A stretch of 64,000 nucleotides of DNA, taken from a virus. Below are positions 57,286 through 58,701 of this stretch, one piece after another. The stretch is taken from the UHGV virus genome UHGV-0326727; one strand, 5' to 3'. A model generated the notes under the pieces. That model was given only the letters and a program-made list of their open reading frames with translations, had not been told where the DNA came from and did no database searches. The position numbers were made by a program, and so were the translations under genes. The first letter of the stretch is position 1; each line of letters starts with the position of its first letter.

Positions 57286-58701
57286 ATGAGCGAATTATTT
57301 AAACATGCGCACCTTCATGCAGGTCGAACTGAAAATGGTGCTGTAAACCATACTTCATCAATGTCTGCTCTGGTAGACTTCTACAAAGCCGCTGGCTCAA
57401 GCCGTAGCAATGTAGAAATCTTACCAGACCTGTTCTACAAAGCTTTGCGTGAGGATGTTGATGTTGCAGTTCGTATTTTACTGCATATGCGAGATGTACG
57501 GGAAGGCATGGGTGAGCGTAAAGCTTTCCGAACTGTTTTACTTCAAGCGATTGAAGATAAAGTTTTAGAACCTACACAGGTTCTTCGCATTATGGATAAG
57601 ATTGCAGAACTTGGTCGTTTTGATGACTTCAAAATCTTCGTAGGTACTCGTTTTGAGACAGATGCCTTCAAACATTTAGAATCAGCATTACTAGACCCTG
57701 CAACATCAGGTTTAGCAGCCAAGTGGTTACCACGAGTAAAACCACGTCATAAACAGTTTGTAAAACGTTTCTGCAAGTTTGCAAACTTAAGCGAGAAAGA
57801 GTACCGCACACTGTTATCTGCACTGTCTGATACGGTTGAGCAAAAAATCTCTGCTAATGAGTTTGGTAAGATTGACTACAGCAAGATTCCTTCACTCGCT
57901 GCTGCACGTTACCAAAAACTCTTTAACCGTAAAGATGGGGAACGTTACAAAGCTTACATCGAGTCACTCTCAAAAGGTGAGGCTAAGATTAACGCTGGTG
58001 CTGTTTACCCATACGATGTGATTAAATCTATCAAGTATGGTAATGCAGATGTGGCTAATGAGCAGTGGAAAGCACTACCAAACTGGATGGCAGAAGGTGA
58101 GAACATCTTGTGTATGACTGATGTTTCAAGCTCAATGTCTTGGGTGAATCTTGGTTCAATCACTGCCCTTGATATTGGTGTATCCCTTGCCTTGTATGTA
58201 GCAGAACGAAACACAGGTTGCTTTAAGAATGAGTTGATGGTTTATTCAACAAACCCTCATTTCATCGAACTGAGTGGTGATTTACGAAACCGTCATCGTC
58301 AGGTAATGCGTCATGTTGAATATGGTTCAACTAACTTACAAGCAGCTTTTGACCGTATTCTTGAAATAGGTAAGAGAAACAACTTGACTCAGAAAGATAT
58401 GCCAAGTAAGCTTATTATCTTCTCTGATATGGAGTTTAATCAGGTTGATGGTGCAAATGGTCGTACAAACTTTGAAGCAATTCAGAGTAAGTACAAAAAA
58501 GCTGGATACGAAATGCCACAACTAGTATTCTGGTACTTAGCAAACCGTAATGGTACTTGCGAAGTATCTGTTAAGGATAATGGTGTAGCAATGGTATCAG
58601 GGTTCTCTCCAGCCACTTTAAAAGCTCTGCTTGGTGGTGAGAAGTTTGACCCAATCAGCGTAATGCTCAAAGCAGTAATGATTGACCGTTACATCTGGTA
58701 A
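57286..58701 (+). CDS. von Willebrand factor A (vWA) domain protein with MIDAS motif
   Basis: 471 aa; helical N-terminal half, then DVSSSMS (DxSxS MIDAS) about residue 280 and a vWA-like C-terminal half. Confidence 0.5.
   Translation: MSELFKHAHLHAGRTENGAVNHTSSMSALVDFYKAAGSSRSNVEILPDLFYKALREDVDVAVRILLHMRDVREGMGERKAFRTVLLQAIEDKVLEPTQVLRIMDKIAELGRFDDFKIFVGTRFETDAFKHLESALLDPATSGLAAKWLPRVKPRHKQFVKRFCKFANLSEKEYRTLLSALSDTVEQKISANEFGKIDYSKIPSLAAARYQKLFNRKDGERYKAYIESLSKGEAKINAGAVYPYDVIKSIKYGNADVANEQWKALPNWMAEGENILCMTDVSSSMSWVNLGSITALDIGVSLALYVAERNTGCFKNELMVYSTNPHFIELSGDLRNRHRQVMRHVEYGSTNLQAAFDRILEIGKRNNLTQKDMPSKLIIFSDMEFNQVDGANGRTNFEAIQSKYKKAGYEMPQLVFWYLANRNGTCEVSVKDNGVAMVSGFSPATLKALLGGEKFDPISVMLKAVMIDRYIW

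Follow-up and report, generated by a model that had tools for sequence, protein, structure and literature searches.

The open reading frame at 57286..58701 (+) of a Felixounavirus (Felix O1-type phage) genome probably encodes a divergent Ro60-type protein, genetically linked to small Y-like RNAs that form a class of their own. Within the window, the 64,000-nucleotide stretch analysed, this ATG-initiated frame of 471 aa is followed by four RNA elements, E1-E4 (Table 1). We observed a Ro60-like predicted fold with an intact MIDAS site, a shared RNA architecture with covariation, a protein-RNA linkage at ~110 loci and an RNA motif specific to the class. The gene product is very likely a Ro60-like protein whose cognate RNAs are Y-like and, judging from the linkage and by analogy, the protein and E1-E4 would form ribonucleoprotein particles (RNPs). 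The frame is kept at 95-99% DNA identity in ~200 phage records and is therefore a genuine gene rather than a chance reading frame.

Table 1. Positions of the Ro60-like gene, its predicted domains and neighbouring elements in the window
Feature	Position	Strand	Basis
Sigma-70-like promoter match TTGACA-18-TAAAGT, 40 nt 5' of the ORF	57217..57246	+	consensus match only
CDS, Ro60-like protein, 471 aa (Pfam DUF2828 + DUF7788; PHROG 850)	57286..58701	+	ortholog of Bas63 gp130
Helical-repeat (ring) half, ~aa 28-263	57367..58074	+	AlphaFold2 model
vWA domain (Pfam DUF7788), ~aa 274-455	58105..58650	+	Pfam, AlphaFold2 model, hhalign
MIDAS DxSxS motif, D279 V S281 S S283	58120..58134	+	sequence; invariant in homologs
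Two sigma-70-like promoter matches between stop codon and first tRNA	58720-58748, 58811-58840	+	consensus matches only
Array of 24 tRNA genes, host to E1-E4	58867..63205	+	ARAGORN
E1, Y-like RNA, 79 nt; outer helix UGAC/GUCA, AGA/G internal loop, AGACCAA/UUGGUCU helix, UUACAGCAA motif	59033..59111	+	
E2, Y-like RNA, 66 nt; closing architecture as E1	59200..59265	+	
E3, Y-like RNA, 83 nt; closing architecture as E1	59616..59698	+	
E4, YrlA-type Y-like RNA, 138 nt; closing architecture as E1 plus enclosed permuted tRNA-like module	59706..59843	+	
tRNA-like module of E4	59765..59816	+	T-arm 59765-59781, closed acceptor-like hairpin 59782-59799, D-arm 59802-59816

The first-pass annotation had described a protein whose N-terminal half is helical and whose C-terminal half is vWA-like and bears TDVSSSMS, in an overall architecture resembling Ro60/TROVE; both descriptions are borne out, and the interpretation built on them is supported. 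The AlphaFold2 model (pLDDT 89.5, pTM 0.89) is all-helical over residues ~28-263 and alpha/beta over ~274-448, and is predicted to adopt the overall Ro60/TROVE fold, in which a C-terminal vWA domain closes a ring of helical repeats. Indeed, the best 10 Foldseek matches in the PDB were all Ro60/TROVE proteins, aligned over the full length (TM ≤ 0.66, E ~4e-8), followed by the MIDAS domains of Rea1/midasin and Ku80. The vWA domain has the complete MIDAS signature of Ro60 (DxSxS...T...D): the sequence CMTDVSSSMSW supplies D279-x-S281-x-S283, and these residues, together with T349 (GSTN) and D381 (SDMEF), are invariant in an alignment of 48 homologs with identity down to 42%.

By sequence, the protein belongs to DUF2828 (102.5 bits, cut-off 29), DUF7788 (148.8 bits, cut-off 27.1) and PHROG 850 (E 1e-183). 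Pfam returned no TROVE match at E ≤ 1, that is, no sequence-level HEAT-repeat ring, and neither phmmer nor a profile of the 48 sequences found a Ro60 chain among PDB sequences, only noise. Only the C-terminal part reaches Ro60: hhalign aligned residues 221-450 with the last helices and vWA domain of a canonical phage Ro60 (E 6.2e-5, probability 65%), placing the MIDAS residues on DVSGSM, GGTD and TDNET of the canonical protein, so that the DVSxSM, GxT and D motifs are common to both. The N-terminal halves gave no significant alignment with five canonical phage Ro60s (E 0.09, probability 0.6%), and Pfam vWA_Ro60 matched faintly, in a homolog only (E 0.0046). Since the ring half lacks detectable TROVE sequence similarity, its common ancestry with TROVE rests on predicted structure. 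Overall, the product is likely to be a highly divergent Ro60-type protein, its helical-repeat ring closed by a vWA/MIDAS domain.

The placement of the gene directly 5' of a tRNA cluster, also noted at first pass, proved exact in its coordinates: the first of the 24 tRNA genes, all on the plus strand, begins 165 nt past the stop codon. The unusual structured RNAs reported there correspond to four paralogous elements within 59033-59843 and to further gaps in the array whose folding far surpasses that of shuffles (59844-59989, for instance, has z = -5.5). Consensus scans for promoters and terminators showed no enrichment over shuffles (for sigma-70-like matches near the gene, 15 found and 15.5 expected), so these matches offer weak context only; no plus-strand terminator was found between the gene and E1-E4. 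An upstream 123-aa DUF5681 gene was considered as a conserved partner and rejected, being conserved in Ounavirinae-like loci only.

As with the partner RNA genes of known Ro60 systems, E1-E4 lie nearby on the same strand, 332-1142 nt 3' of the gene in the first gaps of the array. All four fold into one common closing architecture, in which a closing helix (core AGACC/GGUCU) is followed directly by a single-stranded YCAGCAA motif; this composite motif occurs exactly four times in the 64 kb, always on the plus strand, between 59037 and 59840. E1 is positioned 4 nt past tRNA-Glu and 8 nt before tRNA-Met, and E2 lies 3 nt past tRNA-Met and 8 nt before tRNA-Asn. The elements are retained in Felixounavirus, in SUSP2 and in Bas63, and compensatory changes are seen among them. 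For example, the outer helix of E2 alternates between UUGC/GCAA and UUAC/GUAA among strains. E1 is conserved in relatives L001-L005, SUSP2 and Bas63; its motif was not detected in relative L006.

E4 additionally encloses a module in the permuted order of YrlA RNAs (V, T-arm, closed acceptor-like stem, D-arm) on its closing helix. Its acceptor-like hairpin, ACUCGGC-AGAU-GUCGAGU, is replaced in SUSP2 by ACACGU-UACG-GCGUGU with compensatory changes, and the Rfam tRNA model aligns the T-arm and the hairpin preceding it as a half-tRNA. E4 scored 88 bits with our covariance model (CM) R1 and was also recovered by a strict structural scan. Rfam reported nothing on E1-E4 at gathering or permissive thresholds; in a search of 171 nt, the YrlA model RF02553 still missed E4 when matches up to E 10 were allowed. 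GNCGAAN0-1G, published as the Ro-binding motif and conserved at the 5' side of YrlA as its proposed Rsr contact, is absent; the sole GNCGAA match in 58700-60000 is part of the T-arm junction of E4.

Modules of this YrlA type recur beside related genes. The strict scan over 1.27 Mb returned 19 on the gene strand, none on the opposite strand and none in 20 shuffles. Their RNAalifold consensus comprises four helices with double changes in 21 of 23 pairs; 93.8% of alignment cells are paired (59.9% in shuffles), and the covariation score is 0.91, whereas shuffles reached 0.24 and slid partners no more than 0.17. Because the seed RNAs were picked for pairing, part of this covariation arises by construction. 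CAGCAA was no criterion in choosing the tRNA-like modules; it was, however, used in setting the limits of every element and closing helix, so covariation in the closing helix is less independent than in the other three. The strand and shuffle controls, this CAGCAA-independent choice of modules and CM matches outside the seed all lessen the selection bias. Indeed, the CM recovered unseeded members beside DUF2828-type genes as well as YrlA RNAs beside canonical Ro60 genes, and 50 of 50 matches fell on the gene strand. Matches below ~40 bits were rejected as including tandem-tRNA artefacts, such as window positions 61470-61599. RF02553 matched the element of this class in Samty at 37.9 bits (E 6e-5), under its gathering score of 69, as were its matches to phage YrlAs beside canonical Ro60 genes.

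To follow the linkage beyond tRNA-like modules, we used a generic signature (helix, C(A/C)GCAA, complement) within ±700 nt of the gene and on its strand. It was present in 51 of 77 viral loci (9 opposite, 3-10 in shuffles), and this was replicated in 60 of 80 genome loci (5 opposite, 2-14 in shuffles). The protein-RNA linkage thus recurs in ~110 independent phage and prophage loci; about one third of loci had no strict-signature RNA within 700 nt, and none of five canonical TROVE loci carried a CAGCAA-type signature, the RNA motif beside canonical phage Ro60 genes being a different one. In nearly all DUF2828-linked elements C(A/C)GCAA, 0-4 nt past the 5' helix strand, replaces GNCGAAN0-1G. Loci lacking tRNAs are ordered gene, Y-like RNA(s), terminator, with the element beginning 23-50 nt past the stop codon, and in many loci elements lie upstream of the gene. 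A genome-wide scan with the generic signature was noisy (240 plus, 102 minus, ~70 in shuffles) and is decisive only in gene flanks. The literal Felix-type motif, AGAAGACC...GGTCT, mostly failed as a probe of distant loci, and structure-based scans were therefore used instead.

The function known for a close relative bears on how these RNAs are to be read. The ORF product is identical at 460 of 471 positions (98%) to gp130 of Bas63 (Escherichia phage JohannRWettstein, MZ501086), whose gene likewise precedes tRNA-Pro/Glu/Met/Asn/Tyr/Asp. The PhageMaP preprint (2024) noted that gp130 has 'high structural similarity to Ro60' and lies upstream of tRNAs, and found that it counters Ppl defence, an effect that transfers to T7 (PMC11482910). 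T7 growth on a Ppl host was rescued by gp130 alone, supplied from a plasmid or the T7 genome with no RNA of Bas63 present (PMC11482910), so the Ppl phenotype does not depend on the phage Y-like RNAs. The protein might act by itself as a protein-binding inhibitor, for instance by docking its vWA/MIDAS domain on Ppl or another host factor, the RNAs being irrelevant or tuning expression. The MIDAS is a classical protein-ligand site, all five of its residues are invariant and the next-best structural matches are Rea1/midasin and Ku80, as such an inhibitor would predict. However, the protein could have bound host RNAs in the T7 experiment, the two readings may both hold, and an inhibitor of this kind leaves unexplained both the conserved full Ro60-like ring and the same-strand RNA signature in most viral and genome loci, often within one terminator-bounded unit with the gene. 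We consider it unlikely.

Much less probable is that E1-E4 and their relatives are cis elements that either mark processing or punctuation sites in the tRNA operon or autoregulate the protein's own mRNA from its 3'-UTR. E1 and E2 do sit exactly between tRNAs, the scans detected no plus-strand terminator from the gene to E1-E4, and elements of tRNA-less loci follow the stop codon and precede a terminator much like a 3'-UTR element. On the other hand, E1 is set apart from the gene by two tRNAs and two promoter-like sites, many loci carry their elements 5' of the gene, a permuted tRNA-like domain in common with YrlA RNAs (PMC4201824) is unexpected in a simple processing signal, and co-transcription is also known for rsr-yrlBA. 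Coincidence, namely a generic vWA protein beside degenerate tRNA pseudogenes and chance repeats, would fit the missing TROVE sequence signal and the tendency of tRNA arrays to gather tRNA-like remnants (for example 60781-60855), but the strand, shuffle and replication controls in effect refute it.

If, as we favour, a Ro60-like protein acts with cognate Y-like RNAs, it would bind the closing helix and CAGCAA region, as Ro60 binds the Y RNA stem, to yield RNPs. RNase P and the maturation of tRNA 3' ends would free E1 and E2, and probably E3 and E4, from a polycistronic tRNA transcript, as suggested by the tRNAs that bracket E1 and E2 within 3-8 nt. If Rsr-Y RNA-PNPase and Thermus phage phiRo60 are a guide, the RNP could tether, gate or sequester host RNA-processing enzymes, or shield RNA ends; the tRNA-like module may provide a handle for tRNA-recognising factors, and protection from Ppl may be one outcome. 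The DUF2828-type family comprises ~8,800 clusters at 50% identity and extends to phages of Enterobacteria, Vibrio, Campylobacter, Listeria, Staphylococcus, Enterococcus, Bacillus and Mycobacterium, along with many prophage and MAG loci. We tentatively propose, at somewhat less than an even chance, that DUF2828/DUF7788 proteins and CAGCAA-type RNAs form a large, previously unrecognised second Ro60-Y RNA lineage, in which the RNAs would be required, would be released from tRNA operons by tRNA-processing enzymes and would gate or target the protein against host immunity that acts on RNA or nucleotides, such as Ppl. A specific exoribonuclease-modulating mechanism for the RNP, argued by analogy, is a little more doubtful still. 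If the second lineage is real, eukaryotic DUF2828 proteins may be Ro-like RNPs too.

Few tractable systems exist in which to ask what Ro60-Y RNA particles do in bacteria and phages. Our analysis ties a very widespread DUF phage protein to Ro60 biology and supplies candidate partner RNAs at coordinate level with a distinct motif. The Ro60-like fold was already noted in PhageMaP; the RNAs, the family-wide protein-RNA linkage and the CAGCAA motif go beyond that preprint. On RNAs, it went no further than the conjecture that 'some tRNA genes are possibly Y RNAs' (PMC11482910), whereas the Y-like RNAs sit in unannotated gaps of Bas63, outside the annotated tRNAs. E4 lies antisense to a predicted CDS (bas63_0137) in that phage, and annotations of relatives place small CDSs across these RNAs. 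Our literature searches brought up nothing further on the Ppl mechanism, nor any work on Felix O1 Y RNAs. As Bas63 grows on E. coli K-12, is engineerable and has a clean Ppl counter-defence phenotype, the role of the Y-like RNAs is directly testable by mutating or deleting E1-E4. For annotation, hundreds of phage genomes, therapeutic-type Listeria, Staphylococcus and Felix O1-like phages among them, could exchange 'DUF' or 'hypothetical protein' for 'Ro60-like'. The data also suggest a second use of phage tRNA arrays, as platforms on which non-tRNA small RNAs are expressed and processed.

Among known systems, stand-alone vWA/MIDAS proteins (Rea1/midasin, the Ku80 vWA domain, NorD, BatB) have the C-terminal fold and metal-site residues in common with the 471-aa protein. 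Canonical 'Ro-like RNA binding proteins' of actinophages (Mycobacterium cluster C1, Streptomyces, Microbacterium) are likewise phage-encoded beside tRNA genes, but are 33-40% identical to human Ro60, and their YrlA RNAs are detected by both our CM and RF02553. The canonical set held 358 records and the DUF2828-type set 710, with no overlap among the rows listed and host breakdowns, which were compared in place of intersected accession lists. SEA-PHAGES uses the same product name for both kinds of protein, for example for Samty gp54, which is of the DUF2828 type. Thermus phage phiLo encodes a TROVE protein, phiRo60, with CGAA-motif RNAs Yrl1/Yrl2 (Hu et al. 2025, PMC12135203; PDB 9kop, 9l5y), and the DUF2828 profile does not detect it. 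Bacterial Rsr with YrlA/YrlB (Salmonella, Mycobacterium, Deinococcus; Chen et al. 2014, PMC4201824) is a TROVE protein of ~500-540 aa, as compared to DUF2828 plus DUF7788 here, and its RNAs carry GNCGAAN0-1G in place of C(A/C)GCAA. Unlike Rsr systems, no rtcBA neighbours were seen beside the DUF2828-type gene, and E1-E4 are embedded in a tRNA array. Nevertheless, Rsr has the ring and vWA/MIDAS fold predicted here, its partner RNA genes lie on the same strand within a few hundred nt, and one RNA bears a T-arm, closed acceptor and D-arm on its closing helix with smaller Y RNAs alongside; YrlA RNAs there are stable and Rsr-bound (PMC4201824).

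The open reading frame agrees exactly with the first-pass annotation, encoding 471 aa with a DxSxS motif. Pfam assigned DUF2828 (E 3e-29) and DUF7788 (E 2e-43) to its product, together with a VWA_2 match below threshold, and its PHROGs family was phrog_850, 'RNA-binding protein' (E 1e-183). From an alignment of 48 homologs (identity down to 42%), AlphaFold2 produced a model with a mean pLDDT of 89.5 and a pTM of 0.89. It has short strands at the N-terminus, is all-helical over residues ~28-263 and alpha/beta over ~274-448, matching the helical and vWA-like halves previously proposed. 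When this model was searched against the PDB with Foldseek, the ten best matches were all Ro60/TROVE structures, including Xenopus Ro60 (2i91, 1yvp, 1yvr), Deinococcus Rsr (2nvo), a 'Trove domain' entry (9kop) and recent Ro60/La complexes, with full-length alignments (E ~4e-8 to 6e-7, TM up to 0.66, 11-16% identity); all matches ranked lower were isolated vWA domains. Structural comparison scored Xenopus Ro60 (1yvp_A) at 21.6 over 397 positions (3.5 A), the Ro60 of Thermus phage phiLo (9l5y_B) at 16.2 over 355 and Deinococcus Rsr (2nvo_A) at 12.3 over 261, versus at most 11 over ~180 or fewer for any isolated vWA domain. Since full-length Ro60 matches outscore isolated vWA domains, the likeness covers the predicted helical ring, not the vWA half alone, and the Ro60/TROVE-type architecture suggested earlier is borne out by the model, which has the ring of helical repeats on which that suggestion hinged.

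The relationship to TROVE proteins held in part when profiles were compared. Against five canonical phage Ro60s the last helices and the vWA domain aligned (E 6.2e-5, probability 65%, DVSxSM matched), which supports homology of this portion; the ring halves alone gave no signal (E 0.09), Pfam returned no TROVE match at E<=1, and no Ro60 chain was found among PDB sequences with either the single sequence or the 48-homolog profile. Because only the C-terminal part is supported by profile comparison, we describe the protein as Ro60-like in its modelled fold and architecture and, on sequence grounds, do not class it as a TROVE family member. All five MIDAS residues (D279, S281, S283, T349, D381) were invariant in the 48-sequence alignment, as were the N-terminal motifs RDxRxGxGER, GRxDD and KWxPR. 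A predicted Ro60-type fold with an intact, invariant MIDAS site is shown.

The family is large, with 8,832 clusters at 50% identity at E<=1e-3 and 6,828 at E<=1e-10. By tblastn, relatives were found in 710 phage records, whose hosts include Escherichia, Salmonella, Vibrio, Campylobacter, Listeria, Staphylococcus, Enterococcus, Bacillus and Mycobacterium. In mycobacteriophages, members such as Samty gp54 (34% identity) bear the annotation 'Ro-like RNA binding protein' yet have the DUF2828+DUF7788 architecture. Relatives are also encoded at no fewer than 570 loci of bacterial and archaeal assemblies (80 of them taken as comparison loci L090-L169), many of them in Clostridia/Oscillospiraceae MAGs and some in isolate genomes, on large contigs (Dysosmobacter segnis, Novimethylophilus kurashikiensis).

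The window belongs to a Felix O1-like myovirus. Its 2.4-kb gene region matched 253 phage records; identity was 95-99% for ~200 of these (Felixounavirus of Escherichia, Salmonella, Shigella and Citrobacter), and annotations of the gene in these records read 'hypothetical protein', 'DUF2828 family protein' or 'RNA-binding protein'. The adjacent upstream gene, also on the + strand, has a basic 123-aa product, Gly/Ser/Lys-rich at its N-terminus, whose counterpart in the relatives JH2 and BPS15Q2 carries the RefSeq product name 'DUF5681 domain-containing'. It was rejected as part of a conserved unit, as its conservation beside the Ro-like gene is confined to Ounavirinae-like phages and one further locus (L007, 43% identity). 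Separately, a 377-aa protein contains three tandem Ig-like repeats (PVITxQP...ATGYQWKK...DAGSYTCVV); its ortholog is shorter in phage D4 (294 aa, 'tail protein') and longer in Bas63 (460 aa, 'immunoglobulin-like domain protein'), so strains appear to differ in the number of repeats (2/3/4).

Features of the Ro60-like locus and its surroundings in the window
Feature	Coordinates	Strand	Basis or description
Ig-like repeat protein	54074-55207	-	377 aa
Upstream gene (DUF5681 counterpart)	56833-57204	+	123 aa
Ro60-like CDS	57286-58701	+	ORF listing: ATG start, 471 aa, contains ...CMTDVSSSMSW...
24 tRNA genes	58867-63205	all +	ARAGORN
E1	59033-59111	+	motif search + fold
E2	59200-59265	+	motif search + fold
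E3	59616-59698	+	motif search + fold
E4	59706-59843	+	motif search + fold
Multi-branch structured RNA	59844-59989	+	146 nt
Hairpin element before tRNA-Arg	60440-60559	+	z = -4.1
tRNA-like remnant	60781-60855	+	tRNA-Sec model, 23 bits
Hairpin element before tRNA-Leu	61075-61219	+	z = -3.3

The tRNA cluster expected directly downstream was confirmed: its first gene begins 165 nt past the ORF stop codon (ARAGORN), and 22 of the 24 tRNAs are also supported by Rfam at gathering score. The unusual structured RNAs anticipated at the locus correspond to four paralogous Y-like small RNAs, E1-E4, and further stable elements in the gaps of the array. A composite motif noticed repeatedly in these gaps occurs exactly four times in 64 kb, always on the + strand (59037-59840), and all four folded elements share a closing architecture. 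Their 4-bp outer helix is paralog-specific yet complementary (UGAC/GUCA, UUGC/GCAA, GAGC/GCUC, UUAC/GUAA) and encloses an AGA/G internal loop and then a conserved AGACCNN/NNGGUCU helix; directly after the 5' helix strand comes a single-stranded (U)UYCAGCAA, followed by a variable interior. E1 and E2 lie between tRNAs, 4 and 3 nt from the upstream tRNA and 8 nt from the next. Because tRNAs bracket both within 3-8 nt, RNase P and tRNA 3'-end processing would free them almost exactly. Inside E4, a T-arm (GAAGG-UUCGAUU-CCUUC) is followed by a closed acceptor-like hairpin of 7 bp and then by a D-arm with the GG loop. This order amounts to a circularly permuted tRNA-like module, the hallmark by which YrlA Y RNAs of bacteria are defined (Chen et al. 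2014, PMC4201824). All four elements are kept in five close Felixounavirus loci, SUSP2 and Bas63, and three of the four were detected in a sixth Felixounavirus locus (L006). Compensatory changes occur in the E2 outer helix (G-C to A-U among strains) and in the E4 acceptor hairpin of SUSP2.

In relatives, the region of E3/E4 and of the structured RNA beside it is overlain by small 'hypothetical protein' CDSs: bas63_0137 and bas63_0138 (-) in Bas63 (L170 20749-21023), and CDS0023 and CDS0024 (+) in D4 (L001 8967-9305). These are probably spurious calls on non-coding RNA. In Bas63 the Y-like RNAs sit in unannotated gaps, not among annotated tRNAs, with E4 antisense to predicted CDS bas63_0137.

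Other structured elements occupy the same array. Between E4 and tRNA-Lys lies a multi-branch RNA with a 22-bp closing helix (MFE -46.4 kcal/mol, z = -5.5; 0/200 shuffles fold as well), which had no Rfam match. SUSP2 retains this RNA, and the closing helix there shows at least one compensatory change, from U-A to C-G. The multi-branch RNA and the two long, stable hairpin elements end in AAAGAT(N)TTAAT directly before tRNA-Lys 59990, tRNA-Arg 60560 and tRNA-Leu 61220, respectively, and may represent a recurring spacer or processing element. In the tRNA-like remnant, an acceptor-like helix of 10 bp is accompanied by a T-arm-like hairpin; the remnant matched the tRNA-Sec model weakly and was not called by ARAGORN. 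The D4 array also contains an HNH endonuclease gene (L001 10046-10438) that is missing from the corresponding place in the window; the tRNA array is an insertion site for mobile elements.

The association of such RNAs with the gene extends well beyond Felixounavirus. The generic scan asked for a perfectly paired helix of 7-9 bp, C[AC]GCAA 0-4 nt past its 5' strand, and the complement at a distance of 15-170 nt. Its matches are noisy genome-wide but sharply enriched beside the gene. Counting loci with at least one match within +-700 nt, 51 of 77 non-redundant viral loci had one on the gene strand (81 elements) versus 9 on the opposite strand and 3-10 in 20 shuffled-flank runs. The corresponding counts for 80 loci of bacterial/archaeal assemblies were 60 (128 elements), 5 and 2-14. 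The small elements take the form A-AG(G/A)NNNN, (U)UYCAGCAA, an A/U-rich interior and NNNNYCU-G. In the interiors of several, two or three AGCAA repeats occur beyond the canonical CAGCAA (L011 11404-11474, L016 1529-1596, L021 11399-11464, L022 11394-11459, L059 9832-9896), which hints at multivalent binding of one motif.

YrlA-type modules were likewise sought in named phages and in 80 IMG/VR loci whose encoded relatives share 39-47% identity. tRNAs are near the gene in about half of these loci, every one on its strand, and in Klebsiella phage phi1_175008 the gene is located within a tRNA array. A stringent structural scan, which required T-arm, closed 7/7-bp acceptor and D-arm in this order, gave 19 matches on the gene strand, all clear of called tRNAs; the opposite strand and 20 block-shuffles of 1.27 Mb yielded none. 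Among the 19 are matches in Samty (+170 nt, counted from the 'Ro-like' gene) and in phi1_175008 (+325 and +466 nt). C(A/C)GCAA, which was not a selection criterion, follows the 5' strand of a closing helix at a distance of 0-4 nt; the sequence of this helix differs in every phage, and its complement recurs after the D-arm. RNAalifold on a MAFFT alignment of 20 elements recovered the closing helix, T-arm, acceptor and D-arm, with double compensatory changes in 21/23 pairs, 93.8% paired cells versus 59.9% in shuffles (0/500 reach 93.8%) and a covariation score of 0.91 versus 0.24 shuffled and <=0.17 with slid partners; this covariation is partly by construction, as seed elements were picked for pairing, most of all in the closing helix, where elements were delimited by complement search beside the CAGCAA-like motif. 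A covariance model from this alignment found unseeded members directly beside the gene in seven loci (L008, L013, L023, L024, L026, L028, L040) and also matched YrlA RNAs beside canonical TROVE Ro60 genes in four actinophages, with 50/50 matches on the gene's strand; in the bacterial/archaeal set 12/12 were on the gene strand. Rfam RF02553 (YrlA) matched the Samty element over its full length (E 6e-5), scoring level with the YrlAs of canonical-Ro phages, both sub-gathering. In Samty (L082 6462-6719) this element is the middle of three tandem Y-like RNAs directly 3' of the gene, with paralogous helices UGGACACA, UGGACCCC and UGGACGG, an array of paralogs with a common helix core like that of the window. 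On the RNA side, what is shown is a set of Y-like RNAs that are conserved and covary, E4 being the YrlA-type one in the window, and a tight, strand-specific and replicated linkage to the gene.

The idea of a Ro60-like protein has already been published, with a phenotype, for the Felixounavirus Bas63 (MZ501086) in the PhageMaP preprint (PMC11482910). Its bas63_0130 product has 471 aa, is identical to the window ORF at 460/471 residues and occupies the same position. On a host with Ppl, a single ATPase+PHP-domain defence protein, phage deleted for g130 form very small plaques, a defect rescued by complementation (PMC11482910). New here are the identification of the RNAs, the family-wide protein-RNA linkage and the distinct C(A/C)GCAA motif; in a literature search of incomplete coverage we found no papers on Y RNAs in Felix O1-type phages or on DUF2828 as Ro-like.

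The main rival reading is that the protein acts by itself and may inhibit Ppl via its MIDAS site. gp130 alone, plasmid-borne or inserted in T7, restores T7 plaquing on Ppl (PMC11482910), so the phage RNAs are not strictly needed against Ppl. The Y-like RNAs may instead have a gating or regulatory part, a role put forward for Y RNAs in general; or gp130 may make use of host RNAs. In the ribonucleoprotein reading, tRNA-processing enzymes would cut E1-E4 from the tRNA operon transcript, and the protein would bind them via the closing helix and CAGCAA region. The resulting RNPs could modulate or sequester host RNA-processing enzymes, or shield RNA ends, with the tRNA-like domain of E4 as a possible handle for tRNA-recognising factors. 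There is precedent in known systems: the Y RNA stem is bound on the outer surface of Ro60/Rsr, and Y RNA tethers Rsr to PNPase (PMC4201824), and Thermus phage phiRo60 with Yrl RNAs binds and attenuates host PNPase (PMC12135203).

The canonical Ro60 lineage offers a comparison. With human Ro60 used only as a tblastn probe, canonical Ro60 was found in 358 phage records, almost all actinophages, at 33-40% identity to the probe; judged from the listed rows and host breakdowns, these and the 710 DUF2828-type records look non-overlapping. Canonical genes are likewise near tRNAs and YrlA RNAs. A CAGCAA-type element was found near the gene at 0/5 canonical loci, and GNCGAAN0-1G matched at 4/5, as GCCGAAG-type sequences or, in Sparky, GACGAAG and GTCGAAG, with no match at the Phosso locus. 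Such class-specific pairing of protein family and RNA motif would fit a prediction of direct recognition. The fold, the MIDAS and the linked Y-like RNAs together support the original interpretation of a Ro60-like protein beside a tRNA and structured-RNA locus, which is best described as a divergent Ro60-Y RNA system of putative RNA binding, a DUF2828/DUF7788 lineage with its own C(A/C)GCAA Y-RNA class, represented in the window by four paralogs within the tRNA array. Where tRNAs are lacking, the gene is followed by one to three Y-like RNAs and a strong intrinsic terminator, a layout that resembles the known rsr-yrlBA operon.
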